Source: Gaiellaceae bacterium
GTDB taxonomy: Bacteria; Actinomycetota; Thermoleophilia; Gaiellales; Gaiellaceae
Reading direction: 5' to 3'
Length of the DNA: 47,957 nucleotides
Assembly: GCA_035640335.1 (NCBI GenBank)
Contig: DASQWH010000042.1
Span: 1 to 47,957, forward strand
In this document: positions 501 to 31,211 of the stretch, in pieces
Numbering within the stretch: position 1 is the stretch's first letter
Layout: every line of letters begins with the position of its first letter
Position numbers and translations under genes: made by a program
The notes under the pieces: generated by a model
What the model was told of the DNA's origin: nothing
The model's database searches: none
Seen by the model: only the letters and a program-made list of their open reading frames with translations

Positions 501-673
501 CGGCTGCCCGCGGGTGACGGCGAGCCTGTCTTGACACCTCCGGTCGCGGAGCAGGATTGTTCTTGCGAATGGCCGGCGGCCAAGGCAGCGGTCGGCGAGG
601 AAGCCTTCGCCGCGGCCTGGGCGCGTGGCGATGCGACGACGCCGGAGGAGATCGCCGCGATTACGATGCCTTC

Positions 674-2706: not shown

Positions 2707-2710
2707 CTTC

Positions 2711-6442: not shown

Positions 6443-6478
6443 GGCCGGGAAGTTAACAGCCCTCGCCGCGTTTTGCCG

Positions 6479-15117: not shown

Positions 15118-17004
15118 CTATGCGGCGAGGTCGGCGAACTTCGCGTAGCGCTTGAGGAAGGACAGCTTCTCCGAGCCCGTCGGTCCGTTGCGGTGCTTCG
15201 CGCAGATCACTTCGGCGAGCCCCTGCTGGTCGGTCTCCTCGTTGTAGTACTCGTCGCGGTAGATGAAGAAGACGAGGTCCGAGTCCTGCTCGATCGAGTT
15301 GTGGACGACGATGTCGTCGGCGACGAAGTTGTGTAGGCCGTCGACGGTGAGGTCATAGACCTGCTCCTCGCCGTCGCGCTCGACACGAACGACCTCGTCC
15401 CAGTACACCTCTCCGAGCTCGGGCGTCGGGGCCGCGGGGCTCGCCGGCCCGGACCGGCCGTCGGCGACGGCGACTGCGGCCGCGAGACGCGGGCGGAGCG
15501 GGGAGGAGGCCGCGAGCGGAACGGCGATGCGCATCGTCGGGGCGAGGTCGTCGAGCCGGCGCCAGCCGTCGTACGAGAGGAACTTGTGGTTTCCGGTCGC
15601 GCGAATCGTCCGCCCGAGCCGGGTCGTCAGCCAATACACCGGCTTCCGCCCCGTCGAGAACGCACGCAGGATCCGCCGCGGCTCGAAGAGCCACGTCTGC
15701 TCGTTGAGCGCAAGGACGCGCGTGCCCTCGCAGCCCATCAGCTGGGCGATCGGCACGTAGACGCCCTCGTCGGGGAGGAAGACGCTCGACTCTCCGGTCA
15801 GACAGCCCGACTCTCTCAGGTCGGACAGGATCGGCCGCTTGTCGTGGCGCTGCTCGACGGCGCGCGAGAGCTGCGACATCGCGAGCACCGGCACGTCGAG
15901 GTCCCGCGCGAGCACCTTCAGCTGCCGCGAGATCTGCGAGACCTCCTGGACGCGGTTCTCGACGGTCGCGCCGGAGGTCATCAGCTGCAGGTAGTCGACG
16001 ATGATCAGCGCGAGGTTCGGCTCCTGCGTCTTCAGCCGCCTCGCCTTCGATCGGATCTCCATCATCGTGATCGAGCCGGTGTCGTCGACGTAGATCGGCG
16101 CTTTCGCGAGCTTGTCGCAGGCGGCCGTCAGCCGGGGCCAGTCGTCGGCGGCGAGCTTGCCGCTCCGGAGTCGCTGCGACTCGACCTTCGCCTCGCTGCA
16201 CATGAGCCGCTGCGTGACTTCCGACTTGGACATCTCGAGGGTGAACAGCGCGACCGGGTACTGGTGGCGGACGGCGATGTTGGCGGCCATGCACAGGCCG
16301 AGCGCGGACTTGCCCATGCTCGGCCGCGCGGCGACGATGATCAGATTGCCGGGCTGGAAGCCGGACGTCAGCCGGTCGATGTCGCGGAAGCCCGACGGGA
16401 CCCCGGTCAGCTCCTCGCCGGCCTCATAGAGCGCCGTGATCCGCTCGAAGCTTTCCTTGAGCAGCGCCTCGATGTGGCTGAACTCCGTCGAGACCCGGCT
16501 CTGCGAGAGCTCGAAGATGACCTGCTCCGCGCGGTCGACGAGCTCCTGCGCGTCGCCGGGGCGCTCCCATCCGAGCCGAGCAACCTCGCCGCCGGCACGG
16601 ATGAGCCCGCGGAGCGTCGCCATCTCGCGCACGATGCGCGCGTAGTGGCCGGCGTTCGCCGTCGCGGGCACGAGCGCCGCGAGCTCCTGGATGCGGCCGC
16701 GGCCACCCGCGTCCTCCAATTCGCTGCGCTCCTCGAGCTCGTCGACGAGCGTGATCGCGTCGACGGGCTCCCCGCGCGCGTACAGCCCGAGCGCCGCGCG
16801 GTAGATCTTGGCGTGGCTCTCCCGGTAGAAGTCGCCGGCGTCGAGGACCTCGCTCACGGACCCGATCGCGCCGGGCGCGAGCATCATCGCGCCGAGGACG
16901 GACTCCTCGGCGTCGAGGTTCTGCGGGGGCACAGGAGCGGCCTGCGCGGACGGGGCGACAGTGGCCACGTCGTCAGTGAACCCCGCCCTAGCCACGACGT
17001 CCAT
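15118..17004 (-). CDS. dnaB: Replicative DNA helicase DnaB, interrupted in-frame by a mini-intein
   Basis: N-terminal PQNLDAEESVLGAMM, Walker A ARPSMGKSA, IIVDYLQLM, and then LSDLRESG | intein | SIEQDSDLVFFIYRDEYY. The mature helicase would be 459 aa. Confidence 0.92.
   Translation of the reverse strand: MDVVARAGFTDDVATVAPSAQAAPVPPQNLDAEESVLGAMMLAPGAIGSVSEVLDAGDFYRESHAKIYRAALGLYARGEPVDAITLVDELEERSELEDAGGRGRIQELAALVPATANAGHYARIVREMATLRGLIRAGGEVARLGWERPGDAQELVDRAEQVIFELSQSRVSTEFSHIEALLKESFERITALYEAGEELTGVPSGFRDIDRLTSGFQPGNLIIVAARPSMGKSALGLCMAANIAVRHQYPVALFTLEMSKSEVTQRLMCSEAKVESQRLRSGKLAADDWPRLTAACDKLAKAPIYVDDTGSITMMEIRSKARRLKTQEPNLALIIVDYLQLMTSGATVENRVQEVSQISRQLKVLARDLDVPVLAMSQLSRAVEQRHDKRPILSDLRESGCLTGESSVFLPDEGVYVPIAQLMGCEGTRVLALNEQTWLFEPRRILRAFSTGRKPVYWLTTRLGRTIRATGNHKFLSYDGWRRLDDLAPTMRIAVPLAASSPLRPRLAAAVAVADGRSGPASPAAPTPELGEVYWDEVVRVERDGEEQVYDLTVDGLHNFVADDIVVHNSIEQDSDLVFFIYRDEYYNEETDQQGLAEVICAKHRNGPTGSEKLSFLKRYAKFADLAA
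15298..15804 (-). mobile_element. 169-aa mini-intein (no homing-endonuclease domain) at the RESG/SIEQD site of DnaB
   Basis: Starts with Cys (TGT at 15804-15802, CLTGESSVFL, block A). Block B is IRATGNHKF, block F is VYDLTVDGLHNFVA, and block G is DIVVHN followed by +1 Ser (TCG at 15297-15295). The extein junction restores the canonical DnaB motif. Confidence 0.88.
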
Positions 17005-19182: not shown

Positions 19183-19488
19183 GTGAGGAGCCGGATCGCC
19201 GTCCTGCTCGGAGGCGCGGCCGTCGCCGGCGCGGCCGTGTATCGCGCTCTGCGGCCGGGGCGCCCCAGGCCGGAGGCGCCGTCGGCTCCCGACGGGCCCG
19301 CGGACGAGCTGCGCGCGAAGCTGGAAGAGGCCCGCAGCGTCGCATCCGAGCGTGACGAGTTCGAGGCCGCCGAGGTGCCGATCGACCACGCCGAGGAGGT
19401 CGTAGTCGACGTCGCCGACCGGCGTCGCGCCGTGCACGAGCGCGGTCGGCGTGTGGCGGAGCACATGCGCCGGCCCGACCCCGACTAG
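19183..19488 (+). CDS. Hypothetical single-pass membrane protein (101 aa)
   Basis: GTG start. N-terminal TM (RIAVLLGGAAVAGAAVY), then a charged helical region. GC3-biased. Confidence 0.45.
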   Translation: MRSRIAVLLGGAAVAGAAVYRALRPGRPRPEAPSAPDGPADELRAKLEEARSVASERDEFEAAEVPIDHAEEVVVDVADRRRAVHERGRRVAEHMRRPDPD

Positions 19489-19604
19489 ACCGCCTGCCGG
19501 CAGGCCGCGGCGCTCGAGCTCCGCAGAAAGCGGGGCTATTTCGGAATCTCGCCGCTCGGTGGCATCATGGACAGCGGGGTCGAAGGAGAGAGGAGATAGC
19601 TGCG

Positions 19605-22600
19605 GTGAAGCCGGCGACCACGATGGTCTGGTTCCTCGTCGTCGCATGCGGCGTCCTGGCCGTCGTCGCCGGCGCGCTCGGCGCGGCCGCCCCCATCCGC
19701 TCGGCAGCAAGCCTCGGCCCGGGCGTGCCCGACGAGCCGCCGGTGCGGATCTCTGTCAACGATGCGAGCGTGACGGAGGGCGACTCGGGCACGGTCGCCG
19801 CCACCTTCACGGTCTCGCTGTCGAGGGCGCACACGCTCCCGGTGACCGTCGACTACGCAACGGCGAACGAGACCGCCACGGCACCCGTCGACTATGTGGC
19901 CGCGGCCGGCCAGCTGAGCTTCGCGCCCGGCGTAACGTCGCTCCCGGTCACCGTCCTCGTCAACGGTGACAGCACGGACGAGGCAGTCGAGAGGTTCTTC
20001 GTGAACCTCTCGAATCCGACGAATGCCGACATCCAGGACGGCCAGGGCTTCGGCGTGATCAACGACGACGACGGCCCGGCACTCTCGATCGCCGACGTGG
20101 CCGTCACGGAGGGCAACTCCGGGCCTGTGACCGCGACCTTCGTTCTCTCTCTGAGTGCCGCGAGCCCGCAGGCGGTCAGCGTGCAGTACGCGACGGCGAA
20201 CGGGTCCGCGATCTCGCCGAGCGACTACGTCGCGGCCACGGGCATCGTCTCGTTCACCGCCGGCCAGACGACGAGGAGCGTCGCCGTGACGGTCAACGGC
20301 GATGTCCTCGACGAGTCGAACGAGACCTTCTTCGTCAACCTCTCCGGCGCCGTGAACGGCACGATCGCCGACGCCCAGGGCGTCGGAACGATCAACGACG
20401 ACGACGGTCAGCCGTCTTTGTCCGTGAACGACGTTGGGGTCACCGAGGGCAACTCGGGCTCGGTGAACGCCACCTTCACCGTCACGCTCGCGCCTGCGAG
20501 CGGCCAGACCGTGACGCTCGACTACGCCACCGCCGACGACACCGCCACCGCGGGTGCGGACTACCAGTCGACGAGCGGACAGCTGAGCTTCGTGGCCGGG
20601 CAGACGGCTCGCACGGTCACGGTGCCCGTGTTCGGCGACGCCATCGACGAGACGCACGAGAGGTTTACGGTCGCTCTCTCGAACGCGGCCAACGCGACGA
20701 TCGCGGACGGTCAGGGCGTCGGGACGATCAACGACGACGACGGCCCGACCGTCTCGATCGGTGACATTGCGGTCGCGGAGGGGAACTCCGGGACGGCGAC
20801 GGCGAGCTTCCTCGTCTCGCTCAGCGCGCCGAGCCCGCAAACGGTGGGCGTGTCGTACGCGACCGCGAACGGAACAGCCACGGCTCCGGCCGACTACGTC
20901 GCGGCCGCCGGGACGCTCACCTTCGCGCCCGGTGAGACGGCGAAGCCGGTCGCCGTGGGGGTCAACGGAGACGTCTTCGACGAGCTCGACGAGGCCTTCT
21001 TCGTGAACCTGTCGGCTCCGGTCAACGGCACCGTCGGGGACGGTCAGGGCGTCGGCACGATCACGGACGACGACGCCGAGCCTGCTCTCTCCGTCAACGA
21101 CCTCACCGTGACGGAGGGGAACTCGGGCACGACCAACGCGACGTTCGTCGTCACGCTCTCCGCCGCGAGCGGCCGGTCGGTGACGGTTGACTACGCGACG
21201 AGCGACGGGACGGCGACGGCGCCGGCGGACTACGCCGCCCGGACCGGCCAGGTCACGTTCGCGCCCGGCGAGGCGACGCGGGCCGTGACCGTGCCGGTCA
21301 ACGGCGATCTGCTCGACGAGGCCGACGAGACCTTCACCGTGGAGCTGTCCGGTCCCGTCAATGCGACGATCTCCGACGCGCTCGGCCTGGCGACGATCAC
21401 GGACGACGACGCGCTCCCGGCGCTCTCGGTCGGCAACGCCACCGTCGGCGAAGGGAACAGCGGCACGACGACCGCGACGTTCACGGTCACTCTCAGCGCG
21501 GCCAGCGGGAGGGCGGTCTCCGTCGGCTTCGCGACTGCCGACGATACCGCGGAGGCGCCGGGCGACTACCAGACGGCAACCGGGACGCTCGGCTTCGCTG
21601 CCGGGCAGACGGCGAGGACGGTGACGGTCGTCGTCAACGGGGACACGTCCATCGAAGGCAACGAGACGTTCCTCCTCCTGCTCTCGGCGCCGGCCAACGC
21701 CACGATCGCGGACGGCGAGGGCGTGGGCACGATCGTCGACGACGAGCTCGCGCCGACTCTCTCCATCGGCGACGCCGCGGTCACGGAGGGGAGCTCGGGG
21801 ACGGTCAACGCGACGTTCACGGTCGCGCTCGCATCCGCTAGCGAGCAGACGGTCACCGTCGGATTCGCGACGGCGGACGGGACGGCGACCGCTCCCGCCG
21901 ACTACGCCGCCGCGACCAGTCAGCTGAGCTTCGCGCCGGGTGAGACGACTCGCACGATCACCGTTGTCGTCAACGGCGACGCGCTCGATGAGAGCAACGA
22001 GACATTCCTCGTCGACCTGTCGGGCGCCGTCAACGCGACGATCGCGGACGGCCAGGGCATCGGCACGATCACGGACGACGACGCGCCGCCGACGCTCTCG
22101 ATCGACGACGTCACGGTCCCCGAGGGCAGCTCCGGGAGCACGAGCGCGACCTTCACCGTCAGGCTCAACACGGCGAGCGGCCAGTCACTCTCGGTCGACT
22201 ACGCGACCGCCGACGGCAGTGCCACTGCCGGCAGCGACTACACGGCGGGCAACGGGACGGTCGCCTTCGTGCCCGGCCAGACGAGCCGCCAGGTAACGGT
22301 TCCGATCGTCCCGGACGCGCTCGACGAGAACGACGAGACCTTCAACGTGAATCTCACGAACGCGGTCAACGCGACGATCGCCGACGGGCAGGCCGTCGGC
22401 AGGATCACGGACGATGACCCGCTGCCGACGCTCTCGATCGAGGACAAGGTCGTCACCGAGGGCAACTCGGGCACCCTGAACGCGACCTTCACGGTCAGCC
22501 TGGACACGGCGAGCGGGCGGTCTCTCACCGTGAACTACGCGACCGCGGACGGGACGGCGACGGCGACGGCCGACTACCAGACGCGCACTGGGACGCTCAC

Positions 22601-23834
22601 GTTCGCCCCCGGCCAGACGACGCGGCCGGTGACCGTCCCGATCGTGGGCGACACGCTCGACGAGAACAACGAGACGTTCACGGTCAACCTGTCGGGCGCC
22701 GTCAACGCGACGATCGGTGACGCCCAGGGCATCGCCACGATCATCGACGACGACGGGGAGCCGGCGCTGACCGTCCACGACGCGGCGGTGACTGAGGGGA
22801 ACGCCGGCTCCGTCGACGCCGTCTTCACGGTGACGCTCGCGCCGTCCAGCGGGCAGACGGTGACCGTCGACTACGCGACTGCGAACGGCACCGCCACCGC
22901 CGGTGGCGACTACCAGGCCCGCAGCGGGAGGCTGACGTTCGCGGGAGGCGTAACTACGCGCGAGGTCGTTGTGCCCGTGAGCGGCGACGTGCTCGACGAG
23001 GTCGACGAGACCTTCACCGTCACCCTCTCGAACGCCGTCAACGCGGTCCTCGCCGACGCGCAAGGGATCGGCACGATCGTCGACGACGACCAACCGCCGG
23101 CGGCCTCGATCGGCGACGTCTCGGTCGCCGAGGGCAATTCGGCCACGACGACGGCGACGTTCACCGTCGTGCTGAGCGCCCCGAGTGGCCGCACCGTCAC
23201 GATCGACGGCGCGACGGCCGACGTGACCGCGCACGCGCCGTCCGACTACCTCGCGGTGCCGGCGACACCCGTCTCGTTCGCGCCCGGCCAGACGTCGCGA
23301 ACGATCGCGGTCGTCGTCAACGGCGACATCGTCGTCGAGCCCGACGAGACCTTCGCCGTCAATCTCGCCAACGCCAACGGCGCGACGATCGCCGACGCGC
23401 AGGCGCTCGGCACGATCTCGAACGACGACGCGCCGGCGCCGCCTCCTCCACCGCCTCCTCCGCCGCCGCTACCGCCCCCGCCACCGCCTCCACCGCCTCC
23501 TTCACGCCCGCCCGCACGCACGCGCGCCGCGCTCTACCTCCCTCCGGCCGGCGCCCGGGTGACGAAGCCTCCGCTCCTCGCCTGGCGGGCCGTCCCCCGC
23601 GCGCGCTTCTACAACGTCCAGCTCTTCCGGAAGGGGCGGAAGATCCTCAGCGTGTGGCCTTACCGGCCGCGGCTACGGCTCAAGGCGACGTGGACCTACC
23701 GGGGCCGGACGATGAGCTTGCGGGCCGGCTCGTACACCTGGATCGTCTGGCCCGCCTTCGGGCGCCTCGAGCAGCCTCGCTACGGCGGCAAGCTGGGCGC
23801 GAGCACCTTCAGGATCGTGAAGGCGCGCGGATGA
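19605..23834 (+). CDS. Giant secreted Calx-beta repeat protein 1 (11 units) with a poly-Pro linker and a basic C-terminal module
   Basis: ggagagaggag lies 8-18 nt upstream of GTG 19605. Signal peptide MKPATTMVWFLVVACGVLAVVAGALGAAAP. 11 units of ..S..D..VTEGNSGT..ATFTV.LS..SG..V.V.YATA.GTATAP.DY....G.L.F.PG.T...V.V.VNGD..DE..E.F.V.LS...NATI.D.QG.GTI.DDD. Then APAP10LP10SRPPA and a 105-aa Arg/Lys-rich tail. Confidence 0.9.
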   Translation: MKPATTMVWFLVVACGVLAVVAGALGAAAPIRSAASLGPGVPDEPPVRISVNDASVTEGDSGTVAATFTVSLSRAHTLPVTVDYATANETATAPVDYVAAAGQLSFAPGVTSLPVTVLVNGDSTDEAVERFFVNLSNPTNADIQDGQGFGVINDDDGPALSIADVAVTEGNSGPVTATFVLSLSAASPQAVSVQYATANGSAISPSDYVAATGIVSFTAGQTTRSVAVTVNGDVLDESNETFFVNLSGAVNGTIADAQGVGTINDDDGQPSLSVNDVGVTEGNSGSVNATFTVTLAPASGQTVTLDYATADDTATAGADYQSTSGQLSFVAGQTARTVTVPVFGDAIDETHERFTVALSNAANATIADGQGVGTINDDDGPTVSIGDIAVAEGNSGTATASFLVSLSAPSPQTVGVSYATANGTATAPADYVAAAGTLTFAPGETAKPVAVGVNGDVFDELDEAFFVNLSAPVNGTVGDGQGVGTITDDDAEPALSVNDLTVTEGNSGTTNATFVVTLSAASGRSVTVDYATSDGTATAPADYAARTGQVTFAPGEATRAVTVPVNGDLLDEADETFTVELSGPVNATISDALGLATITDDDALPALSVGNATVGEGNSGTTTATFTVTLSAASGRAVSVGFATADDTAEAPGDYQTATGTLGFAAGQTARTVTVVVNGDTSIEGNETFLLLLSAPANATIADGEGVGTIVDDELAPTLSIGDAAVTEGSSGTVNATFTVALASASEQTVTVGFATADGTATAPADYAAATSQLSFAPGETTRTITVVVNGDALDESNETFLVDLSGAVNATIADGQGIGTITDDDAPPTLSIDDVTVPEGSSGSTSATFTVRLNTASGQSLSVDYATADGSATAGSDYTAGNGTVAFVPGQTSRQVTVPIVPDALDENDETFNVNLTNAVNATIADGQAVGRITDDDPLPTLSIEDKVVTEGNSGTLNATFTVSLDTASGRSLTVNYATADGTATATADYQTRTGTLTFAPGQTTRPVTVPIVGDTLDENNETFTVNLSGAVNATIGDAQGIATIIDDDGEPALTVHDAAVTEGNAGSVDAVFTVTLAPSSGQTVTVDYATANGTATAGGDYQARSGRLTFAGGVTTREVVVPVSGDVLDEVDETFTVTLSNAVNAVLADAQGIGTIVDDDQPPAASIGDVSVAEGNSATTTATFTVVLSAPSGRTVTIDGATADVTAHAPSDYLAVPATPVSFAPGQTSRTIAVVVNGDIVVEPDETFAVNLANANGATIADAQALGTISNDDAPAPPPPPPPPPPLPPPPPPPPPPSRPPARTRAALYLPPAGARVTKPPLLAWRAVPRARFYNVQLFRKGRKILSVWPYRPRLRLKATWTYRGRTMSLRAGSYTWIVWPAFGRLEQPRYGGKLGASTFRIVKARG
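19740..23429 (+). repeat. Coding tandem array: 11 diverged Calx-beta units of 333-336 nt
   Basis: Unit boundaries at each ..GTI.DDD / ..P.LS..D junction. Antisense shadow ORFs recur at 336-nt spacing (21230, 21566; 22238, 22574, 22910, 23246). Confidence 0.9.
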
Positions 23835-24501
23835 AGGCGTCGACGCCCGCCACGAAGCCCTTCGCGACGCGCAGCTGGTAACCGGGCGAGCGCAGGAGGC
23901 GGCCTTCGGACGGGTTCGTCAGGAACCCCGTCTCCGCGAGCACGACCGGTACGTTCGCCCAGTTGAACCCCGTCAGATCGCTCCGCCGGACGAGGCCGAG
24001 GTCGCGTGCTCCCGTCGAGCGAACGAGCTCGCGCTGGATGACGCGACCCGCTCGCAGGCTCCGCGAGTACACGTCGTCCGTCCAGCCACGGCGGAAAGCG
24101 GGGTAGTACATCGCCGCCCCGCGCCGGCTCGTGTCGGTCGAGCCGTCGGCATGGATGCGCAGCATGAGCGCCGCGCCGCGGCGGTTGCAGAACTGCGCCC
24201 GCGCGATGTTGCCGCCGCTCCCGTATGTGAAAGTCGGTCCCGGGCGCGTCATCGCCACGCGGTAGCCGCGGGCGAGCAGAAGCGCTCTCGTCCGCTTCGC
24301 GATCTGCAGGACGACCTCGGCCTCGCCTCGCGTGCCGCCCCCGTCTTTCTCCTTCAGCACCGACGAGCCCGGCCCGATCGGCTCGCGCTGCCGACCGATC
24401 GCAGGCGGGGTCCCGTGCCCGGGATCGAGGCAGATCAGTGCCGACGCGAGCGCTTCGACGAGCAGGCTCCAGACGATAGCGGTGCGAGCCGCTTTGCAAA
24501 T
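23809..24501 (-). CDS. N-acetylmuramoyl-L-alanine amidase (Amidase_3/CwlD-like); start codon unresolved
   Basis: ICLDPGHG...GTRGEAEVVLQIAKR...GAALMLRIHADGS...VPVVLAETGFLTNPSEG. A signal-like segment KAARTAIVWSLLVEALASAL precedes the domain. No in-frame ATG/GTG/TTG lies before the divergent gene. 24501 is an ATT codon used here only as a provisional boundary. Confidence 0.7.
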   Translation of the reverse strand: MCKAARTAIVWSLLVEALASALICLDPGHGTPPAIGRQREPIGPGSSVLKEKDGGGTRGEAEVVLQIAKRTRALLLARGYRVAMTRPGPTFTYGSGGNIARAQFCNRRGAALMLRIHADGSTDTSRRGAAMYYPAFRRGWTDDVYSRSLRAGRVIQRELVRSTGARDLGLVRRSDLTGFNWANVPVVLAETGFLTNPSEGRLLRSPGYQLRVAKGFVAGVDAFIRAPSRS

Positions 24502-24558
24502 GTCGAAAAAGGTGCCAACATGGTCGAAAGTTCGTAATCCGGTGCGGCAGGTGCGGAA

Positions 24559-25245
24559 GTGGTTCGAGGGGGAGTCCTTGCGAAGGTGTTGCGAGCGGGC
24601 GCGCTCGCGTTCGTCGCGGTCGGCCTGGGGCTGGCCTCGGTCGGCGCTGCCTTCGCAGCCGACGGGCCGAAGCCCGATCCGCCTCCCGTCGCGCCGCCGC
24701 CACCGCCGCCGCGCCCCGCACCTCCACCGCCAGTAACGCCGCCTCCACCGCCGGTCTTCGAGGCGCCTCCACCGCCCGTGTACCGCGGCCCGTCCGCGGC
24801 GGAGATCGCAGCCGCGCGCCGGGCGGCGGAGGCCCAGCGCGCGCAGCGTTTGGCGGCGCGGCGCCAGAAAGCGCGTCGACTCGCGTTGCAGCGCAAGCGC
24901 GCGCAGGCCAACGCGCAGGCCAAGCGTCTCGCGGCGCGCGCGCGAGCGGCCGCGGGCCGTGAGGCGGACAGCCGGAGCGTCGGCGCCCTGAGCGCGGGGC
25001 CGAAATCGGCCTCTGGCCGCTTCAGCGTCGAACGCGAGTCGCCTCTGAAGAACGGGGCGCTGCTTGTGATCGTCGTCGTGCTCGCGCTGATCCCGCTCGT
25101 GCTCTCGCTGATCCCTGCCTACGTCGTGCCGTGGTATCGCGCGTCGATGGTGCTCGAGGCGCACCGCCACGAGTTCGCCCTCGTCGGCGGCATGGCGCTG
25201 CTCGCCACCGGAATCTTCTTCCTCATGGTCGTGCTCGGGGGGTAA
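24559..25245 (+). CDS. Proline-rich, Ala/Arg coiled-coil membrane protein (signal peptide + 2 C-terminal TM helices)
   Basis: LRAGALAFVAVGLGLASVGAAFA/ADG signal. PKPDPPPVAPPPPPPRPAPPPPVTPPPPPVFEAPPPPVY. AAEIAAARRAAEAQRAQRLAARRQKARRLALQRKRAQANAQAKRLAARARAAA. TM helices LLVIVVVLALIPLVLSLIPAYVV and LVGGMALLATGIFFLMVVLGG. The start could be GTG 24559 or GTG 24586. Confidence 0.65.
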   Translation: MVRGGVLAKVLRAGALAFVAVGLGLASVGAAFAADGPKPDPPPVAPPPPPPRPAPPPPVTPPPPPVFEAPPPPVYRGPSAAEIAAARRAAEAQRAQRLAARRQKARRLALQRKRAQANAQAKRLAARARAAAGREADSRSVGALSAGPKSASGRFSVERESPLKNGALLVIVVVLALIPLVLSLIPAYVVPWYRASMVLEAHRHEFALVGGMALLATGIFFLMVVLGG

Positions 25246-28200
25246 ATCACATCTCTCTGCGGTTCGGAGTCCTCGCCCTGACAATTTGTTTCCTCACGCC
25301 GCTGGCCTCGGCCACGGTGGGGAGCGCTCCATCCGCCGAGAGCCTCTCGATCGACGACGTGACCGTCACGGAGGGAAACAGCGGCACGACGGCGGCGACG
25401 TTCACGGTCACGCTCTCCGCGAGCAGCGTTGACACCGTCACCGCCGACTACGCCACCGCCGACGGGACGGCGGTCGCGCCCGCGGACTATGCGGCGACGA
25501 GCGGTCCGCTGACCTTCCTGCCGGGCGAGACGACCAAGACCGTGACGGTCGACGTCGCTGGCGACACGATCGACGAGATTGACGAGGGCTTCACCGTCGA
25601 CCTGGCCAATCCGGTCAATGCGACGATCGTCGACGGGCAGGGCGCCGGCACGATCGGCGACGACGACGCAGCCCCGGCGCTGTCGGTCGACGACGTCACC
25701 GTCGCCGAGGGCGACGTCGGCACCGTGAACGCCGTCTTCACGGCGAGCCTCTCCGCGGCGAGCGGCCAAACGGTGACCGTCGACTTTGCGAGCGCCGACG
25801 GCACGGCGAGTGCTCCGGCCGACTACGGTGCGGTCGCCGGCGGCGTCAGCTTCGCCCCGGGCGAGACGACGAAGACGGTCACGGTCGCGATCGTCGGCGA
25901 CCTCCTGGACGAGGCGAACGAGACGTACACCGTCAACCTCGCGAACGCGACGAACGCGACGATTGCCGACGGCAGCGGCCTGGGCACGATCACCGACGAC
26001 GACGGGACGCCGTCGCTCTCGATCGACGACGTCACCGTCGCCGAGGGCAACGCAGGGACCGTCAACGCGAACTTCACCGTCAGCCTCTCGGCCGCGAGCG
26101 GCCTGCCAGTCACGGTCGACTTCGCCACCGCCGACGGCACTGCCACCGCGCCGGCCGACTACGCGGCGGCGAGCGGCACGCTGACCTTCCTCCCCGGCCA
26201 GACGACGCGGCCGGTCACCGTCCAGGTTGCTGGCGACCTGCTCGACGAGGTGAACGAGACCTTCCTCGTCAACCTCTCGAACGGGGTCGGCGCCACGATC
26301 GCGGATGGCCAGGGCATTGGGACGATCACCAACGACGACGGGCTGCCGGCGCTGTCCGTCGGCGACATGACCGTCGTCGAGGGCAGCTCGGGGACGACGA
26401 CTGCGTCCTTCGCGGTCACGCTCGCGCCTGCGAGCGGTCGCGAGGTAACCGTTCACTACGCGACCGCCGACGGGACCGCGACGGCGCCGGCGGACTACAC
26501 CGCCGCAGCCGGGACGCTCACGTTCGCGCCGGGGCAGACGTCGAAGCCCGTCAGCGTCACGGTCAACGGCGACGCGCTCGACGAGGTCGACGAGACGTTC
26601 ACGCTCGGTCTCTCGGCACCCACGAACGCCACGATCGCGGACGACCTCGGGCTGGGCACGATCACCGACGACGACGCGCCGCCGACGGTCTCGATCGGCG
26701 ACGCCACGGTGACCGAGGGCGACAGCGGCACCGTCGCCGCCACGTTCACGGTGAGCCTCGACGCGCCGAGCGGCCGCGCGCTCTCCGTCGACTACGCGAC
26801 CGCGAACGGCACGGCGACCGCGCCGGCGGACTACGTCGCGACGAGCGGCACGCTCGCCTTCGCGGCGGGCCAGACCTCGCGCCAGGTGACCGTGCTCGTC
26901 AACGGCGACGTGCTCGACGAAGAGAACGAGACGTACAGCGTCAACCTCTCGAACCCGAGCAACGTGACGATCGGCGACGGGCAGGGCCTCGGGACGATCA
27001 CGGACGACGACCCGCTGCCGGCGATCGCGATCGGCGACGCGACAGTGCCCGAGGGCAACTCGGGCACCGTCAACGCGACCTTCGCGCTCAGCCTCGACGC
27101 GCCCAGTGGGCGCCCCGTCACGGTCACCTACGCGACGCAGGACGGCACCGCGATCGCGCCCGGCGACTACGTCGCGGGTACGGGCACGGTCACGTTCGCG
27201 CCCGGGCAGACGTCGCGAAACGTCACGGTCGTCGTCAACGGGGACACCGTCGACGAGGCCAACGAGACGTACAGCGTCGACCTGACCAACCCCGGTAACG
27301 GGACCATCGCCGACGGCGAGGGCATCGGCACGATCATCGACGACGACGGGTCGCCGTCGCTCTCGGTCAACGACGTCGTGGTCACCGAGGGGAACAGCGG
27401 CACCGTCAACGCGAACTTCACCGTCTCCCTGTCAGGGTCGAGCGGACAGACCGTCAGCGTCGGGTACGCGACCGCAGACGGGACGGCAACCGCCGGCGAG
27501 GACTACAACGCGGTCGGCGGCAGCCTCGTCTTCGCGCCCGGCCAGACCACGAAGACCATCGCCGTGGCCGTGCGCGGGGACACGCTCGACGAGATCGACG
27601 AGACGTACACGCTCAACCTCTCGAACGCCGTCAACGCGGCGATCGCGGACGGCCAGGGGCTCGGAACGATCACGGACGACGACCAGCAGCCGTCGCTCTC
27701 CGTCGACGACGTCACCGTCAACGAGGGCAATGCCGGCACGGCGAACGCGACGTTCACGGTCAGCCTGAACATCGCCAGCGGCCGCGCCGTCTCGGTCGAG
27801 TACGCAACGGCCAACGGGACCGCGACCGCTCCTGCCGACTACACGGCCACGGGCGGCACCCTCACCTTCGCCGCTGGCCAGACGACACGCACCTTCACGG
27901 TGCTCGTCAACGGAGATCTCCTCGACGAGGCGAACGAGACGTTCTTCGTCAACCTCGGTAACCCGACGAACGCCACGATCGCGGACGGGCAGGGCGTGGG
28001 GACGATCACGGACGACGACGCCGCGCCCGCCCTCGCCATCGACGACGTGACCGTCGCCGAGGGCAATGTCGGCACCGTCAACGCGACGTTCACGGTCAGC
28101 TTGAGCGCCACGAGCGGGCGGAACGTCTCAGTCGACTTCGCGACGGCAGACGTGACGGCGACGGCCCCGGCCGACTACCTGGCGGCAACGGGGACGGTCG

Positions 28201-31157
28201 CGTTCGCCCAGGGCGAGACGACGAAGACGGTGACGGTGCTCGTCAACGGCGACACGCTCGACGAGGCGAACGAGACGTTCCGCGTCAACCTGTCGAACGC
28301 GGTCAACGCGACGATCGGGGACGCATTCGGGGTCGGGACGATCACCGACAACGACGCGCCGGTCGCGGTCTCGGTTAACGACGCGTCGGTGCTCGAGGGG
28401 AACTCGGGCCAGGCGACCGCGACCTTCACCGTGTCGCTGTCCGGCGCGAGCGGCCAGCCCGTGAGCGTCGACTATGCAACGGCGGACAACACCGCGATCG
28501 CGCCCGGCGACTACGTCGCGACTAGCGGGCAGCTGAGCTTCGCGCCGGGCCAGACGACGCGGACGGTCGCGGTGCTCGTCAACGGGGACACGCTCGACGA
28601 GATCAACGAGACGTACTTCCTCAACCTCTCCAACCCCGGCAACGCAACGATTTCGGACGGGCAGGGCATTGGCACGATCACGAACGACGACGGCCAGCCC
28701 AGCCTCTCCGTCAACGACGTAACGGTGACCGAAGGCGACTCCGGCACGACGAGCGCCACGTTCACCGTCACGCTGGCCCCCGTGAGTGGGCAGAACGTGA
28801 GCGTCAACTACTCGACGGCGGACGGGACGGCGACCGCACCCGCCGACTACACCGCAACGAGTGGCACGCTCACGTTCGCCCCGGGCCAGGCAACTCGCAC
28901 GTTCACGGTGCTCGTCAACGGAGACACGCTCGACGAGGCGAACGAGACCTACACCGTCAGCCTGACGAGCCCCGTCAACGCCACGATCGCCGACGGCCTC
29001 GGCCTCGGCACGATCAACGACAACGACCCGCTCCCGCAGCTGTCGATCAACGACCAGACGGTCAACGAGGGCGATACCGGGACGGTGACCGCGACGTTCA
29101 CGGTCACCCTGAACGGGCCGAGCGGACGCGCGCTCTCCGTCGACTACACGACTGCAGACGGGACGGCAACCGCGGGCGCCGACTACCAGGCGGTGAGCGG
29201 CACGCTGACCTTCCCGGCCGGCGTCACGTCGCGCCAGGTGACGGTGGCGGTGAACGGCGACCTCCTCGACGAGGCGAACGAGACGTTCTTCATCAACCTG
29301 ACGAACCCGACGAACCTCACGATCCTGGACGGCCAGGGTCTCGGCACGATCACCGACAACGACCCGCAGCCGCAGCTGTCGATCAACGACGCGACGGTGA
29401 CGGAGACGGACAGCGGCACGGTGAACGCGACCTTCACCGTCGCGCTCTCTTCGGTGAGCGGACGGCAGGTGAGGATCGACTACGCAACGGTCAACGGTAC
29501 GGCGACGGCGCCCGCCGACTACCTCGCGACGAACGGGACGCTCACCTTCGCACCGGGCGAGACGAGCAAGCAGATCACCGTCACCGTCAACGGCGACACG
29601 CTAGACGAGGCGAACGAGACGTTCTTCGTCAATCTCTCGAGCCCGCAGAACGCGACGATCGGCGACGGCCAGGGGGTCGGCGCCATCACCGACAACGACC
29701 CAGTGCCCGCGCTCGTGGTGAACGACGCCAACGTCATCGAGGGCAACACGGGCACTGTCGTCGCCGTCTTCACCGTCAGCCTGAGCGCAGTCAGCGGCCG
29801 CTCGGTGACCGTGGACTACGCCACCGCGAACGACACGGCGACCGCAGGCGTCGACTACACCACCGCCGCCGGCACGCTGACGATCCCGGCCGGCCAGACG
29901 TCGGGCACCATCACCGTGCAGGTCAACGGCGACACCGCCGACGAGATTAACGAGACCTACTTCGTCAACCTGACGAACGCGGGGAACGCGACGATCTCGG
30001 ACTCGCAAGCGGTCGGCACGATCATCGACGACGACGGCGGCCCGCTGATCTCGATCAGCGATGTGACTGTGACCGAGGGAGAGAGCGCGAGCTTCGTCGT
30101 CAGCCTGTCGGCCTCGAGCGGGCAGACCGTCAGCGTCGGCTACGCGACGGCGAACGGCAACGCGACCGCAGGCGCCGACTACACCGCCGTCGGTGGGAGC
30201 CTCATCTTCGACCCCGGCCAGACCGCGAAGACGGTTTCCGTGTCGGTGCTCGGCGACACCCTCGACGAGGTCAACGAGACGTTCACGGTCAACCTCTCCA
30301 ATCCCGTCTATGGCGAGATCGCCGACGGCGAGGGTCTCGGCACGATCACCGACGACGACCCGCCGCCGGTGCTGTCGATCAACGACGTGACCGTGACGGA
30401 GCCCGACAGCGGAAGCGTCAGCGCGACGTTTACAGTCAGCCTGAACACCGCGAGCGGCAAGAGCGTCTCCGTCGACTTCGCGACGGCCGACGGCACGGCG
30501 CAGGCTCCCGAGGACTACGCCGGCGGGAGCGGAACACTCACCTTTGCCGCGGGGCAGACGGCGAGGCAGCTGACCGTCCTGGTCAACGGCGACCTGCTGT
30601 TCGAGGCGAACGAGACGTACTTCGTCAACCTCTCGAATCCGCTGAACGCGACGATCGGCGACAGCCAGGGCCTCGGCACGATCACGAACGACGACCCGCT
30701 GCCGCCTCCGCCGCCTCCTCCTCCACCACCACCACCGGCGCCTCCTCCGCCACCGCCGCCACCACCGCCGCCGCCGCCTCCGCCACCACCCCCTCCGCCA
30801 CCACCGCCGGCCCCGCTTCCGCCACCGCCGCCTCCGCCCGCGCAACGGCAGACGGCTGCACTCGCCTCACCGCGGAACGGCGCGAGCGTCGCCGTACCGC
30901 CACTCCTTTCCTGGCGGGCCGCCAGGGGCGCGCGCTTCTACAACGTCCAGGTCTACCGCGGCGGCCGCAAGATCCTCAGCGTCTGGCCGAAGCGGCCCCG
31001 ATTCAAGCTGAGGCGCACCTGGACCTACGCAGGGCGCACGTACCGGCTCCGGCGCGGCTCGTACACCTGGCTCGTCTGGCCGGCGCTAGGAACGGCAAGG
31101 AACCCTCGCTACGGGAAGGCGCTCGGCCAGAGCACGTTCCGCTACGTCGGTCGTTAG
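25131..31157 (+). CDS. Giant secreted Calx-beta repeat protein 2 (16 units) with a 48-residue poly-Pro stalk and a basic C-terminal module; coordinates are the maximal ORF, true start unresolved
   Basis: Signal-peptide-like ISLRFGVLALTICFLTPLASA/TVG begins at 25251 (ATC). 16 Calx-beta units run 25341-30695, poly-Pro 30696-30839, and the C-terminal module to 31154. The only canonical upstream start (GTG 25131) overlaps the previous gene by 115 nt and encodes Arg-rich junk. Confidence 0.88.
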   Translation: MVSRVDGARGAPPRVRPRRRHGAARHRNLLPHGRARGVNHISLRFGVLALTICFLTPLASATVGSAPSAESLSIDDVTVTEGNSGTTAATFTVTLSASSVDTVTADYATADGTAVAPADYAATSGPLTFLPGETTKTVTVDVAGDTIDEIDEGFTVDLANPVNATIVDGQGAGTIGDDDAAPALSVDDVTVAEGDVGTVNAVFTASLSAASGQTVTVDFASADGTASAPADYGAVAGGVSFAPGETTKTVTVAIVGDLLDEANETYTVNLANATNATIADGSGLGTITDDDGTPSLSIDDVTVAEGNAGTVNANFTVSLSAASGLPVTVDFATADGTATAPADYAAASGTLTFLPGQTTRPVTVQVAGDLLDEVNETFLVNLSNGVGATIADGQGIGTITNDDGLPALSVGDMTVVEGSSGTTTASFAVTLAPASGREVTVHYATADGTATAPADYTAAAGTLTFAPGQTSKPVSVTVNGDALDEVDETFTLGLSAPTNATIADDLGLGTITDDDAPPTVSIGDATVTEGDSGTVAATFTVSLDAPSGRALSVDYATANGTATAPADYVATSGTLAFAAGQTSRQVTVLVNGDVLDEENETYSVNLSNPSNVTIGDGQGLGTITDDDPLPAIAIGDATVPEGNSGTVNATFALSLDAPSGRPVTVTYATQDGTAIAPGDYVAGTGTVTFAPGQTSRNVTVVVNGDTVDEANETYSVDLTNPGNGTIADGEGIGTIIDDDGSPSLSVNDVVVTEGNSGTVNANFTVSLSGSSGQTVSVGYATADGTATAGEDYNAVGGSLVFAPGQTTKTIAVAVRGDTLDEIDETYTLNLSNAVNAAIADGQGLGTITDDDQQPSLSVDDVTVNEGNAGTANATFTVSLNIASGRAVSVEYATANGTATAPADYTATGGTLTFAAGQTTRTFTVLVNGDLLDEANETFFVNLGNPTNATIADGQGVGTITDDDAAPALAIDDVTVAEGNVGTVNATFTVSLSATSGRNVSVDFATADVTATAPADYLAATGTVAFAQGETTKTVTVLVNGDTLDEANETFRVNLSNAVNATIGDAFGVGTITDNDAPVAVSVNDASVLEGNSGQATATFTVSLSGASGQPVSVDYATADNTAIAPGDYVATSGQLSFAPGQTTRTVAVLVNGDTLDEINETYFLNLSNPGNATISDGQGIGTITNDDGQPSLSVNDVTVTEGDSGTTSATFTVTLAPVSGQNVSVNYSTADGTATAPADYTATSGTLTFAPGQATRTFTVLVNGDTLDEANETYTVSLTSPVNATIADGLGLGTINDNDPLPQLSINDQTVNEGDTGTVTATFTVTLNGPSGRALSVDYTTADGTATAGADYQAVSGTLTFPAGVTSRQVTVAVNGDLLDEANETFFINLTNPTNLTILDGQGLGTITDNDPQPQLSINDATVTETDSGTVNATFTVALSSVSGRQVRIDYATVNGTATAPADYLATNGTLTFAPGETSKQITVTVNGDTLDEANETFFVNLSSPQNATIGDGQGVGAITDNDPVPALVVNDANVIEGNTGTVVAVFTVSLSAVSGRSVTVDYATANDTATAGVDYTTAAGTLTIPAGQTSGTITVQVNGDTADEINETYFVNLTNAGNATISDSQAVGTIIDDDGGPLISISDVTVTEGESASFVVSLSASSGQTVSVGYATANGNATAGADYTAVGGSLIFDPGQTAKTVSVSVLGDTLDEVNETFTVNLSNPVYGEIADGEGLGTITDDDPPPVLSINDVTVTEPDSGSVSATFTVSLNTASGKSVSVDFATADGTAQAPEDYAGGSGTLTFAAGQTARQLTVLVNGDLLFEANETYFVNLSNPLNATIGDSQGLGTITNDDPLPPPPPPPPPPPPAPPPPPPPPPPPPPPPPPPPPPPPAPLPPPPPPPAQRQTAALASPRNGASVAVPPLLSWRAARGARFYNVQVYRGGRKILSVWPKRPRFKLRRTWTYAGRTYRLRRGSYTWLVWPALGTARNPRYGKALGQSTFRYVGR
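25341..30695 (+). repeat. Coding tandem array: 16 diverged Calx-beta units, mostly exactly 336 nt
   Basis: Antisense shadow ORFs start at 26495, 26831, 27167, 27503, 27839, 28175, 28511, 29183 and 29519, each offset a multiple of 336. Unit 15 lacks 3 codons. Confidence 0.9.
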
Positions 31158-31159
31158 AG

Positions 31160-31182
31160 GTCCCGGGCCACGGGCCCGGGAC
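31160..31182 (+). terminator. Perfect 10-bp GC hairpin 3 nt after the giant gene 2 stop
   Basis: gtcccgggcc (31160-31169) / acg / ggcccgggac (31173-31182). Confidence 0.6.
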
Positions 31183-31211
31183 TCGCCGAAAATGCTCCAC
31201 ACTTTCGGCGA
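31183..31211. terminator. Second hairpin (9-bp stem, 11-nt loop) in the convergent intergenic region
   Basis: tcgccgaaa (31183-31191) ... tttcggcga (31203-31211). It lies between the convergent stops at 31157 (+) and 31319 (-). Confidence 0.4.

Follow-up and report, generated by a model that had tools for sequence, protein, structure and literature searches.

The two giant Calx-beta proteins encoded in the window (the whole 47,957-nucleotide stretch analysed) are, by their sequences, members of an extensive unnamed family of surface proteins from Thermoleophilia that is defined by a basic C-terminal domain, here called Cmod. The second giant, ProtB, forms an operon-like pair with the gene for a proline-rich membrane protein, ProTM, a pairing that is kept in several genomic contexts. 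The conserved unit of the locus appears to be the gene pair itself, ProTM followed directly by a Cmod protein, and the giants at this locus are otherwise ordinary adhesin-like fibres. The gene pairing suggests that proteins are held on the cell surface in a manner not yet described.

Organization of the locus

The features of the locus are collected in Table 1. At the rpsF site, the order of small ORF, amidase (minus strand), ProTM and Cmod protein is kept in every orthologous locus seen. Housekeeping proteins are 61-99% identical among most loci with a ProTM-Cmod pair, which marks their carriers as fairly close relatives, and the conserved order at the rpsF locus is weak evidence because the orthologous loci come from such relatives. 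Other giant repeat proteins also occur in this region in relatives, and an extra giant of the ProtA type lies upstream of the amidase in loci L005 and L037. A promoter and terminator scan of the locus, whose DNA is 70% GC, was uninformative.

Table 1. Features of the Calx-beta locus, with positions in the window
Feature	Position	Strand	Basis
Small conserved protein, 101 aa: weak N-terminal hydrophobic segment, charged helical tail	19183..19488	+	
ProtA, 1409 aa: signal peptide, 11 Calx-beta units, poly-Pro, Cmod	19605..23834	+	Pfam, Tandem Repeats Finder
ProtA Calx-beta array: 11 units, each ~112 aa, pI 4.05	19743..23429	+	PF03160, Tandem Repeats Finder
Poly-Pro tract of ProtA, 24 aa	23430..23501	+	
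Cmod of ProtA: FN3-like C-terminal domain, net charge +21, pI 12	23517..23831	+	Profile E 4e-52
Single-domain Amidase_3 (N-acetylmuramoyl-L-alanine amidase), ~220 aa, start codon uncertain	23809..24477	-	Pfam E 7e-32
ProTM, 228 aa: signal peptide, GPKPDPPP motif, poly-Pro, 64-residue basic helix, C-terminal two-helix membrane hairpin	24559..25245	+	Alignments, AF2
ProtB, 1968 aa: signal peptide, 16 Calx-beta units, poly-Pro, Cmod	25251..31157	+	Most likely start ATC 25251
ProtB Calx-beta array: 16 units of 112 aa	25338..30695	+	Pfam, Tandem Repeats Finder
Poly-Pro tract of ProtB, 48 aa	30696..30839	+	
Cmod of ProtB: net charge +22, pI 12	30843..31151	+	Profile E 6.6e-50

The giant Calx-beta proteins

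Pfam matches and sequence features identify ProtA and ProtB as Sec-exported, strongly acidic Calx-beta arrays (pI 4.05 for the repeat region), in agreement with a preliminary description of two paralogous secreted giants with signal peptides and 11 and 16 units. The Pfam family PF03160 matches ProtA in 11 stretches (E 2.9e-183, 598.8 bits against a cut-off of 27) and ProtB in 16 (E 1.9e-279, 909.1 bits against the same cut-off). The repeat unit is 112 aa, or 336 bp, in both giants, and Tandem Repeats Finder reports two arrays of period 336 (20260-23431 and 25344-30695, the second of 16.0 copies) whose DNA copies are 67-69% identical. The junctions between units carry the triads DDD (9), DDE (1) and NDD (1) in ProtA and DDD (9), DND (4) and NDD (3) in ProtB. 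DDD is the commonest in both, but the acidic pattern [DN]D[DE] once ascribed to every junction does not cover the four DND junctions of ProtB. By sequence, the nearest solved structure to the units is NCX1 CBD12 (E 1.5e-15), and their acidic loop, GDxxDExxE(T)F, aligns with that of the exchanger. In CBD1, the Ca2+ sites are located at the domain end with the acidic loop, adjoining the C-terminal DDD.

The sequence GGAGAGAGGAG lies upstream of the GTG start of ProtA. The start of ProtB is most likely ATC 25251 rather than the alternative GTG 25131, giving 1968 aa; of the size range first proposed, about 1970-2008 aa, the upper value of 2008 aa is reached only from GTG 25131. The poly-Pro tract expected after each array is present in both giants (24 aa in ProtA, 48 aa in ProtB), as is the conserved basic C-terminal module, which is 65% identical between them (E 3e-43).

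A loose pattern search finds no LPXTG-type motif near either C-terminus, the only internal occurrence being LAATG at ProtB residue 977, and the C-terminal ends (...FRIVKARG and ...FRYVGR) lie inside a folded domain. Pfam gives no SLH family in ProtA or ProtB and no HemolysinCabind (RTX) match in the giants, which carry Sec-type leaders instead. The absence of LPXTG and SLH signals and of a T1SS partner, noted at the outset, is upheld, the nearby ABC system being of the DrrAB/ABC-2 type.

Cmod, a C-terminal domain found in Thermoleophilia

Cmod spans about 90-100 aa and matches no Pfam or NCBIfam model. The fn3 model (PF00041) has no match in 25 members even at E<=1, neither PF13731 (WxL; Pfam) nor Por_Secre_tail or TIGR04183 (Pfam, NCBIfam) matches the Cmod proteins, and a profile search for PDB relatives by sequence gives nothing meaningful. 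The AF2 model of Cmod is all-beta (pLDDT 92.3), and the PDB folds that match it best come from FN3 structures, among them 4mmx_C and 2cum (Foldseek E ~3e-3, TM ~0.55-0.6, sequence identity ~17%). As modelled, Cmod is a divergent FN3-like sandwich. The module was correctly described as basic (charge about +21) and without a named family in Pfam or NCBIfam; novelty in its fold is not supported, given the AF2 model and its FN3-like fold matches.

Cmod is not special to this locus: it defines a large family of about 3,000 protein clusters, with 2,988 representative clusters matching its profile at E<=1e-3. Among the 151 top representatives, Cmod lies no more than 6 aa from the C-terminus in 144, and its mean pI is 11.5 against a median of 5.2 for the remainder of the protein. 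It is not C-terminal in the other 7 or in locus L026, and some copies are N-terminal or internal. An N-terminal hydrophobic leader is present in 78 of 85 full-length Cmod proteins. Passengers on Cmod proteins are Ig-like repeats (Big_13, HYR, Big_3_3, Y_Y_Y). Calx-beta units were found in 2 of 65 sampled family members and poly-Pro in 2 of 151, a rarity at odds with the initial view that the plan is defined by a poly-Pro stalk bearing a Calx-beta rod.

All genome matches to Cmod fall in the class Thermoleophilia of the Actinomycetota, in lineages represented by soil MAGs. When the genes of the loci were clustered all against all, no universal neighbour of Cmod genes emerged besides ProTM-type genes and other surface proteins. 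A search of the full-text literature for Thermoleophilia surface proteins, their envelopes or Cmod found nothing. Short proteins of 80-160 aa that seemed to be stand-alone Cmod domains were discounted as truncated gene calls at contig ends or products of upstream coding-sequence breaks.

ProTM and its pairing with Cmod genes

The Pro-rich protein between the giants was described as having a signal peptide, a Pro-rich region, an Ala/Arg coiled coil and two TM helices, a layout borne out by alignments and an AF2 model. The model comprises a helix at residues 4-33, a coil at 34-79, a helix at 80-143 (64 residues, pLDDT ~96-98) and two C-terminal helices, and the alignments show the PDPPP motif to be near-invariant. 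ProTM has no Pfam match, and the TolA or VirB10 labels on its homologues are rejected as low-complexity artefacts. A helix so rich in Arg and Lys outside the membrane, as predicted for ProTM, is unusual.

The proposed link between the Pro-rich protein and the downstream giant is well founded: in every locus, 0-8 nt separate the stop codon of ProTM from the start of the downstream gene, and the pairing is kept in several contexts. The ProTM-Cmod pair is present in at least 15 loci at the rpsF site and in L008, L041 and L019, and L011 and L013 carry distant single-TM variants of ProTM with the same PDPPP motif. Overall, the pair occurs in at least four genomic contexts with differing passengers, the proteins downstream of ProTM bearing 4 to 18 Calx-beta units, or HYR. 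A search by motif and topology over the loci collected up to that stage returned 12 ORFs, all 12 of them directly upstream of a Cmod gene or a giant Calx-beta gene. Most Cmod genes have no adjoining ProTM gene, so ProTM is either a shared receptor or relevant to its own partner only.

A fusion of a Calx-beta unit to the ProTM anchor in L035, on a contig of 1.86 kb, was considered as a Rosetta-stone clue and set aside, since a deletion or a collapsed assembly between the two poly-Pro tracts would look the same.

Neighbouring genes

An Amidase_3 gene on the opposite strand between the giants, as first reported, is confirmed by Pfam (PF01520, E 7e-32, 111.3 bits, cut-off 27, covering profile positions 1-173 of 174; minus strand). 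It is Rv3717-like, but against the Rv3717-family model NF038140 it scores 65.9 bits, far below the cut-off of 335. No orthologue has a signal peptide, no canonical start codon is present within the window, and in the orthologues an in-frame stop lies at most about 24 aa before ICLDPGHG. The gene is transcribed separately, being convergent with ProtA and divergent from ProTM, and it is absent from the ProTM-Cmod loci L008, L019, L041, L011 and L013. The question raised at the outset, whether giant, Pro-rich protein and amidase occur together, is answered positively for ProTM and Cmod and negatively for the amidase, which is missing from the pairs outside the rpsF locus. Its supposed accessory role suffers from the missing leader peptide, the opposite strand and the absence from pairs elsewhere, and the amidase is probably a syntenic neighbour rather than part of the system.

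The small upstream ORF (19183-19488) is real and conserved, as proposed; its N-terminal hydrophobic segment is weak. It has no match in Pfam, NCBIfam or PHROG. Its casting as an accessory is contradicted by its distribution, which tracks rpsF: it lies beside this gene both in relatives with a ProtA-type gene downstream and in those without one. The small protein is probably not part of the system either.

A reading of the amidase as a prophage endolysin and of the small ORF as its holin was rejected, since the position beside rpsF is conserved and phage genes are absent; the amidase has a weak generic endolysin match in PHROG (E 6.7e-10). The adjoining ABC system consists of DrrA and two ABC-2 permeases on the opposite strand with a MarR regulator. 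It was dismissed as the exporter of the giants because it is convergent, of the DrrAB type and not beside the ProTM-Cmod pair in other contexts.

A candidate surface-display module and its alternatives

ProTM and its Cmod cargo are, on balance, judged to form a two-component surface-display module, a reading held with guarded confidence. The acidic loop and junction motifs of the Calx-beta arrays may bind Ca2+, which would make the arrays stiff rods of about 50-70 nm, a length estimated from the known size of the Calx-beta domain, and the poly-Pro tracts would act as rigid spacers. ProTM would expose a cleaved N-terminus with the PDPPP motif, a poly-Pro segment and the long basic helix, with the C-terminal hairpin as its membrane anchor; this topology is drawn from predictions together with the positive tail that the single-TM variants carry. 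Cmod would keep the cargo at the envelope non-covalently, docking either on the outward ProTM stalk or on an anionic wall or membrane polymer alongside ProTM. Direct binding of Cmod to the ProTM helix is disfavoured because both are highly basic. The passenger part would be exchangeable (Calx-beta, HYR or FN3-like), and the amidase and the small upstream protein would be neighbours, not components. A bolder version is distinctly tentative: Cmod with a ProTM-type stalk would constitute an undescribed, class-wide Thermoleophilia display system in which the invariant PDPPP tip docks the aromatic-rich, basic, FN3-like Cmod of hundreds to thousands of exchangeable Ig-like/Calx-beta cargos.

Other readings of the locus account for parts of these data. 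The giants might be released matrix or adhesin proteins whose Cmod binds external eDNA, acidic polysaccharide or clay, with ProTM co-expressed for some other role. Such release is in keeping with the net charge of Cmod, about +20 where the rest of the protein is acidic, and with the soil origin of the MAGs, but it does not explain why the gene of a membrane protein is tightly coupled to a Cmod gene and stays so in several contexts, and this reading is unlikely. There is still less to recommend the absence of any system, in which ordinary large repetitive surface proteins would happen to adjoin unrelated genes where surface-protein genes readily insert. The other giant repeat proteins in the same region of relatives and the free swapping of passenger domains would fit, yet in every case, and across at least four contexts, ProTM immediately precedes a Cmod gene with a gap of 0-8 nt.

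Type IX secretion cargo carries beta-sandwich C-terminal domains, and Cmod could similarly be a sorting or secretion signal that is later removed, handled by a dedicated lineage-specific machine that includes ProTM. The near-strictly C-terminal position of a beta-sandwich of about 90 aa on very diverse cargo is suggestive, but the genome matches are all from Thermoleophilia (Actinomycetota), the cargo already has a Sec leader (the hydrophobic N-terminus in 78 of 85 full-length members), no gene of a conserved machinery turns up repeatedly beside Cmod genes, Por_Secre_tail and TIGR04183 do not match and some Cmod copies are N-terminal or internal. A sorting signal is accordingly quite improbable. 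An envelope-fibre system of four or five genes, with the amidase opening the wall so that fibres can be inserted and with ProTM and the small TM protein assisting in assembly, would agree with the gene order kept in every orthologous rpsF locus seen. That order is weak evidence among close relatives, however, and the amidase lacks a signal peptide in all orthologues, runs opposite to its neighbours (convergent with ProtA, divergent from ProTM) and is absent from the same five loci (L008, L019, L041, L011 and L013), while the small ORF occurs with or without ProtA; such a system is highly improbable.

Gaiellales, Solirubrobacterales and their relatives are abundant soil bacteria. A single unnamed C-terminal domain shared by some 3,000 secreted repeat-protein clusters, together with a conserved membrane partner, offers a handle on protein display in Thermoleophilia. 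If the bolder version of the module proves true, it would add a new class of non-covalent anchoring beside LPXTG, SLH, LysM, CWB2, GW and WxL, and a new non-covalent anchoring principle for monoderm bacteria. Cmod merits a family model, which would put an end to 'hypothetical' and 'large repetitive protein' annotations.

Comparison with known systems

The giants share with the NCX exchanger the Calx-beta domain, matched 11 and 16 times by PF03160, and an acidic loop that aligns to CBD12, but they are long extracellular head-to-tail arrays, whereas the exchanger has a cytoplasmic regulatory pair. LPXTG/sortase-anchored proteins likewise combine a Sec leader, a repeat array, a Pro-rich spacer and a C-terminal retention element; the giants instead end in a folded domain, without the C-terminal motif, hydrophobic segment and charged tail. 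FN3 domains provide the best fold matches of the Cmod model, yet its charge and fixed terminal position are unlike generic FN3 spacers, and PF00041 goes unmatched. The giants do not belong with RTX/T1SS proteins, the neighbouring DrrA and ABC-2 permeases not being an ABC-MFP-TolC type system, nor does Cmod belong with the C-terminal domains of T9SS cargo, its lineage being Actinomycetota.

ProTM resembles TolA/TonB-type proteins in joining an extended Pro-rich stretch and a long basic helix rich in Ala to a membrane anchor, and its homologues are called 'colicin import membrane protein' in some sources. Its score against TIGR02794 (TolA) is 20.8, below the cut-off of 59.45, and comes from the low-complexity helix only. 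In contrast to TolA/TonB, the ProTM anchor is C-terminal rather than N-terminal, and ProTM has neither a C-terminal globular domain nor a TolQR or ExbBD partner.

The WxL surface proteins of Lactobacillales and Bacillales also place a conserved C-terminal domain on Sec-secreted cargo, are retained non-covalently and have clustered genes, and their interaction with a cluster-encoded cognate transmembrane protein has been demonstrated (PMC5817068). On the evidence of their gene pairing, Cmod cargo and the membrane protein ProTM would be alike in logic. WxL domains are 120-190 aa long and carry the motif YXXX(L/I/V)TWXLXXXP (PMC5817068), whereas Cmod is about 90-100 aa, lacks this motif and any PF13731 match, and is FN3-like and extremely basic; the phylum also differs. 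ProTM is no recognised WxL-cluster protein because it has no Pfam match at all. We infer by analogy that, while not a member of the WxL family, the ProTM-Cmod pair is closest in logic to WxL proteins and their cognate membrane protein.

Two Calx-beta giants in a housekeeping neighbourhood

The locus encodes two secreted, acidic, Calx-beta-rich giants, ProtA and ProtB, both ending in a basic C-terminal module (Cmod), and its setting in the window (70% GC) is a housekeeping neighbourhood. The anatomy given in the preliminary description holds: PF03160, the search proposed there, matches 11 and 16 times, and in both proteins a poly-Pro tract (24 aa in ProtA, 48 aa in ProtB) leads from the array to Cmod, which is 65% identical between the two. 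The junction triads, described as [DN]D[DE], are indeed mostly DDD (DDD 9, DDE 1 and NDD 1 in ProtA; DDD 9 and NDD 3 in ProtB), with the exception of 4 DND in ProtB.

Each Calx-beta unit spans 112 aa (336 bp), and DNA copies of the units are only 67-69% identical, so the arrays are old rather than recent expansions. Strings of antisense ORFs in both giant genes were rejected as genes; these frame artefacts of the repeats run to ~99-112 codons with very high GC3 and mirror the 336-bp period. The repeat regions are strongly acidic (pI 4.05), and the closest solved structure by sequence is the NCX1 CBD12 Ca2+-sensor pair (3us9, E 1.5e-15). Because the GDxxDExxETF loop of the units aligns to the acidic loop of the NCX exchanger, and given established knowledge of CBD1, it can reasonably be inferred by analogy that the arrays would be Ca2+-stiffened rods. 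Two related loci (L005, L037) likewise have an extra ProtA-type Calx-beta/Cmod giant, inserted past the small ORF and before the amidase gene. In the closest relative (L029), the giant is separated from the ABC-2 genes by an inserted gene for a BNR/sortilin-type protein with faint Pfam matches.

Positions of features in the window and in loci of relatives (L numbers; other genomes or metagenome contigs)
Feature	Locus	Positions	Strand	Content
BNR/sortilin-type repeat protein	window	5399-6478	-	~13 kb upstream
Upstream genes	window		-	purine genes, adenylosuccinate synthetase, intein-containing dnaB, rplI, rpsR, ssb, rpsF
DnaB helicase gene	window	15118-17004	-	intein in C-terminal ATPase domain (PF14890, E 1.7e-27)
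Small ORF	window	19183-19488	+	
ProtA	window	19605-23834		1409 aa; 11 Calx-beta stretches (PF03160, E 2.9e-183)
Rejected ORF strings	window	21920-22534, 27167-29815	-	antisense to giants
Amidase	window	23809-24477	-	Amidase_3
Amidase frame searched for starts	window	24380-24800	-	
ProTM	window	24559-25245	+	Pro-rich membrane protein
ProtB	window	25251-31157	+	16 Calx-beta stretches (PF03160, E 1.9e-279); from the probable ATC start
Nearer downstream genes	window		-	two ABC-2 permeases, DrrA-type ATPase
Further downstream genes	window			MarR, GNAT, sugar genes
I-S-L-R starts	window	25243-25260		
	L029	~2690-2710		
	L031	~2435-2455		
	L035	~648-668		
BNR/sortilin-type protein	L029	6780-7814		
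GWSGxGCSGTGxC repeat protein	L008	78-5639		1853 aa
Paralogous ProTM-coupled giant	L008	6410-10306		8 Calx-beta stretches (Pfam)
Calx-beta/ProTM fusion	L035	3-650		1.86-kb metagenome contig
Cmod loci with preceding secreted protein	L011	4231-8235		
	L018	3671-6694		
	L021	5906-8365		
	L015	5667-8267		

A large family tagged by Cmod

Cmod is unnamed, yet neither local nor new in fold. The window copies and 25 relatives match no Pfam, NCBIfam or PHROG model even at E<=1, and a profile search of PDB sequences returns nothing. An AlphaFold2 model built on a 25-sequence alignment is confident and all-beta (pLDDT 92.3), and the PDB folds that it matches best are FN3 domains, at a modest level (E ~3e-3, TM 0.55-0.6, ~17% identity). 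Searched exhaustively with a profile, 1.84 billion representatives yield 2,988 matching clusters at E<=1e-3, of which 1,330 also pass E<=1e-10. In the best 150 proteins, Cmod lies <=6 residues from the C-terminus in 144 of the top 151 domains and has a mean pI of 11.5, the remainder of each protein being acidic (median pI 5.2); the window copies carry net charges of +21 and +22 (pI 12). A hydrophobic N-terminal leader is present in 78/85 full-length members. Source annotations for the family read "hypothetical" or "large repetitive protein". Their passengers are Ig-like repeats, led by Big_13 (33/65) and HYR (22/65), then Big_3_3, Y_Y_Y and Big_6. All 28 genome matches are Thermoleophilia-type MAGs (Gaiellaceae, Solirubrobacteraceae, Miltoncostaeaceae, unclassified Actinomycetota), a scan whose strict motifs mean that the true range may be wider.

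Since Cmod is common to thousands of clusters, mostly with other passengers, the giants, with their unusual passenger, both belong to a big uncharacterised family of secreted proteins whose hallmark is a very basic domain at the C-terminus. Calx-beta with poly-Pro, taken in the preliminary description as the defining plan, does not define this family (Calx-beta in 2/65 members, poly-Pro before Cmod in 2/151), and the module thought new belongs to a large FN3-like family still without a named model.

Two side observations concern other Cmod loci. A second group (L011, L018, L021, L015) has a secreted protein of 800-1300 aa preceding the Cmod gene, with Ser/Gln/Asn/Ala-rich repeats (NTNxPVRVLSPGDDGxVxQSNSV...), paired Cys and no Pfam match, and in L022 a PMT_2 (GT-C glycosyltransferase) gene lies directly 5' of the Cmod gene.

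ProTM and its neighbours

ProTM opens with a leader that carries an AxA-type cleavage site; 2-8 residues further on comes GPKPDPPP, which is near-invariant, then poly-Pro, a single 64-residue Ala/Arg/Lys helix (pLDDT ~96-98) and a conserved C-terminal two-helix hairpin (LVPAYVVPWYR...LEEHR...F). Structure prediction, proposed as a check on the C-terminal module and the Pro-rich protein, thus gives confident models of both the FN3-like Cmod and this helix. A comparison covering 41 related loci shows that all relatives examined keep one arrangement at the orthologous locus: rpsF, small ORF, amidase (-), ProTM, Cmod protein, ABC-2 transporter (-), MarR. Because these relatives are close (housekeeping proteins 61-99% identical), synteny alone proves little. 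The ProTM stop lies 0-8 nt from the Cmod-gene start in every locus. Without the other rpsF-locus genes, the pair recurs in L008, 27 kb from the main locus of the same genome and beside a different giant repeat protein, in a LanC/LtrA/GAF context (L041), and in another context with a Cmod protein of 326 aa (L019). A more distant ProTM variant directly 5' of Cmod genes (L011, L013) has a signal peptide, A/SPDPPP, a Pro-rich basic region, a single C-terminal TM and a basic tail. Among the loci covered by a blind search for P[DE]PPP with a preceding leader and a tail TM, 12 ORFs matched, all directly 5' of a Cmod or giant Calx-beta gene. The gene behind ProTM may encode between 4 and 18 Calx-beta units, Calx-beta together with a cupredoxin, or a small HYR protein (~283 aa). 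Because the pair recurs in other contexts with varying passengers, what is conserved is ProTM paired with a Cmod protein of any kind, rather than the Calx-beta fibre itself.

The amidase has a bona fide Amidase_3 domain. In its orthologues, in-frame stops <=~24 aa before the first catalytic-domain strand leave no room for a positively charged or hydrophobic leader; the gene is convergent with ProtA, divergent from ProTM and absent from all other ProTM-Cmod contexts examined. On these grounds it is treated as a conserved neighbour, probably not the accessory once proposed. Giant, amidase and Pro-rich genes, whose co-occurrence was the suggested check, are all kept at the rpsF locus of close relatives, and the amidase is missing elsewhere. 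The small ORF, formerly counted in the fibre locus, adjoins rpsF with or without a ProtA-type gene after it and is therefore not a ProtA accessory. Of the proposed accessories, only the Pro-rich protein is tied to a giant, by the tight and recurrent pairing of its gene with Cmod genes.

In the paralogous L008 giant, the Calx-beta stretches are followed by ~50 residues of poly-Pro, a cupredoxin (plastocyanin/azurin-like), a Pro-rich run of well >100 residues and Cmod; just upstream lies a protein of ~81-aa repeats. In L035, a Calx-beta unit end is joined via PPPP to the ProTM basic helix and hairpin, with a ProtB-like gene after it; this fusion would have arisen either by a natural deletion from one poly-Pro tract to the other or by chimeric assembly.

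Start codons

In the window, L029, L031 and L035, the giant's signal peptide begins AUY-UCU-CUG-CGG (I-S-L-R), which in this subclade sits 5-8 nt past the ProTM stop codon, right after a GGGGGG run. No in-frame ATG, GTG or TTG lies upstream of the leader in L029 or L031, a stop codon sits 16 codons upstream of the leader start in L031, and the next canonical start downstream would remove the leader; elsewhere among the relatives this position holds an ATG or GTG. Candidate explanations are initiation at AUC/AUU (or CUG) and a termination-reinitiation mechanism that couples the gene to ProTM. The amidase frame lacks any ATG, GTG or TTG in the vicinity of the N-terminus while its catalytic domain is intact (Pfam), so the gene would either use a non-canonical start codon or be decaying.

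Mechanism and alternatives

The giants share with the whole family a terminal, very basic FN3-like domain. A conserved, tightly coupled gene at this locus, upstream of ProtB, codes for a Pro-rich protein that is anchored in the membrane by its C-terminus. Cmod would keep its cargo at the envelope non-covalently, with ProTM as its membrane-anchored partner. Cmod may dock on the ProTM ectodomain: a polyproline-recognition interface is conceivable because the PDPPP tip is invariant and Cmod has many invariant Trp/Tyr residues, and binding to the ProTM helix is disfavoured because both are positively charged. Alternatively, the two might share an anionic polymer of the wall or membrane as their ligand.

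As most Cmod genes have no adjacent ProTM gene, ProTM would either serve many Cmod proteins as a common receptor or act only with the protein encoded beside it. Simple co-location of the two genes, with no system behind it, is highly improbable beside the recurrence of the pair, and it is just as doubtful that Cmod is a cleaved sorting signal with ProTM in its machinery. The giants might instead be released matrix proteins whose basic Cmod binds external anionic material, which seems unlikely for cargo encoded next to a membrane-anchored protein. The description that fits the locus best is a pair of adhesin-like Calx-beta fibres that belong to an undescribed surface-display module of Thermoleophilia, formed by Cmod and ProTM. 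The earlier proposal of an envelope-fibre locus thus holds as observation, with minor corrections, and was right in part as interpretation.

Comparison with known systems

That proposal matched the locus to no named surface system, and the membership tests agree: the giants are not LPXTG, SLH or RTX/T1SS proteins, Cmod is not a T9SS-CTD and ProTM is not TolA. The closest working analogy to Cmod and ProTM is the WxL system of Lactobacillales, in which clustered genes encode proteins held non-covalently at the surface by a C-terminal domain, together with a cognate transmembrane protein (PMC5817068). Membership in WxL is excluded, as Cmod has no PF13731 match and differs in size, motif and fold. 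By analogy, the Cmod-ProTM module would fall within a known principle: surface display that is non-covalent and involves a cognate membrane protein.
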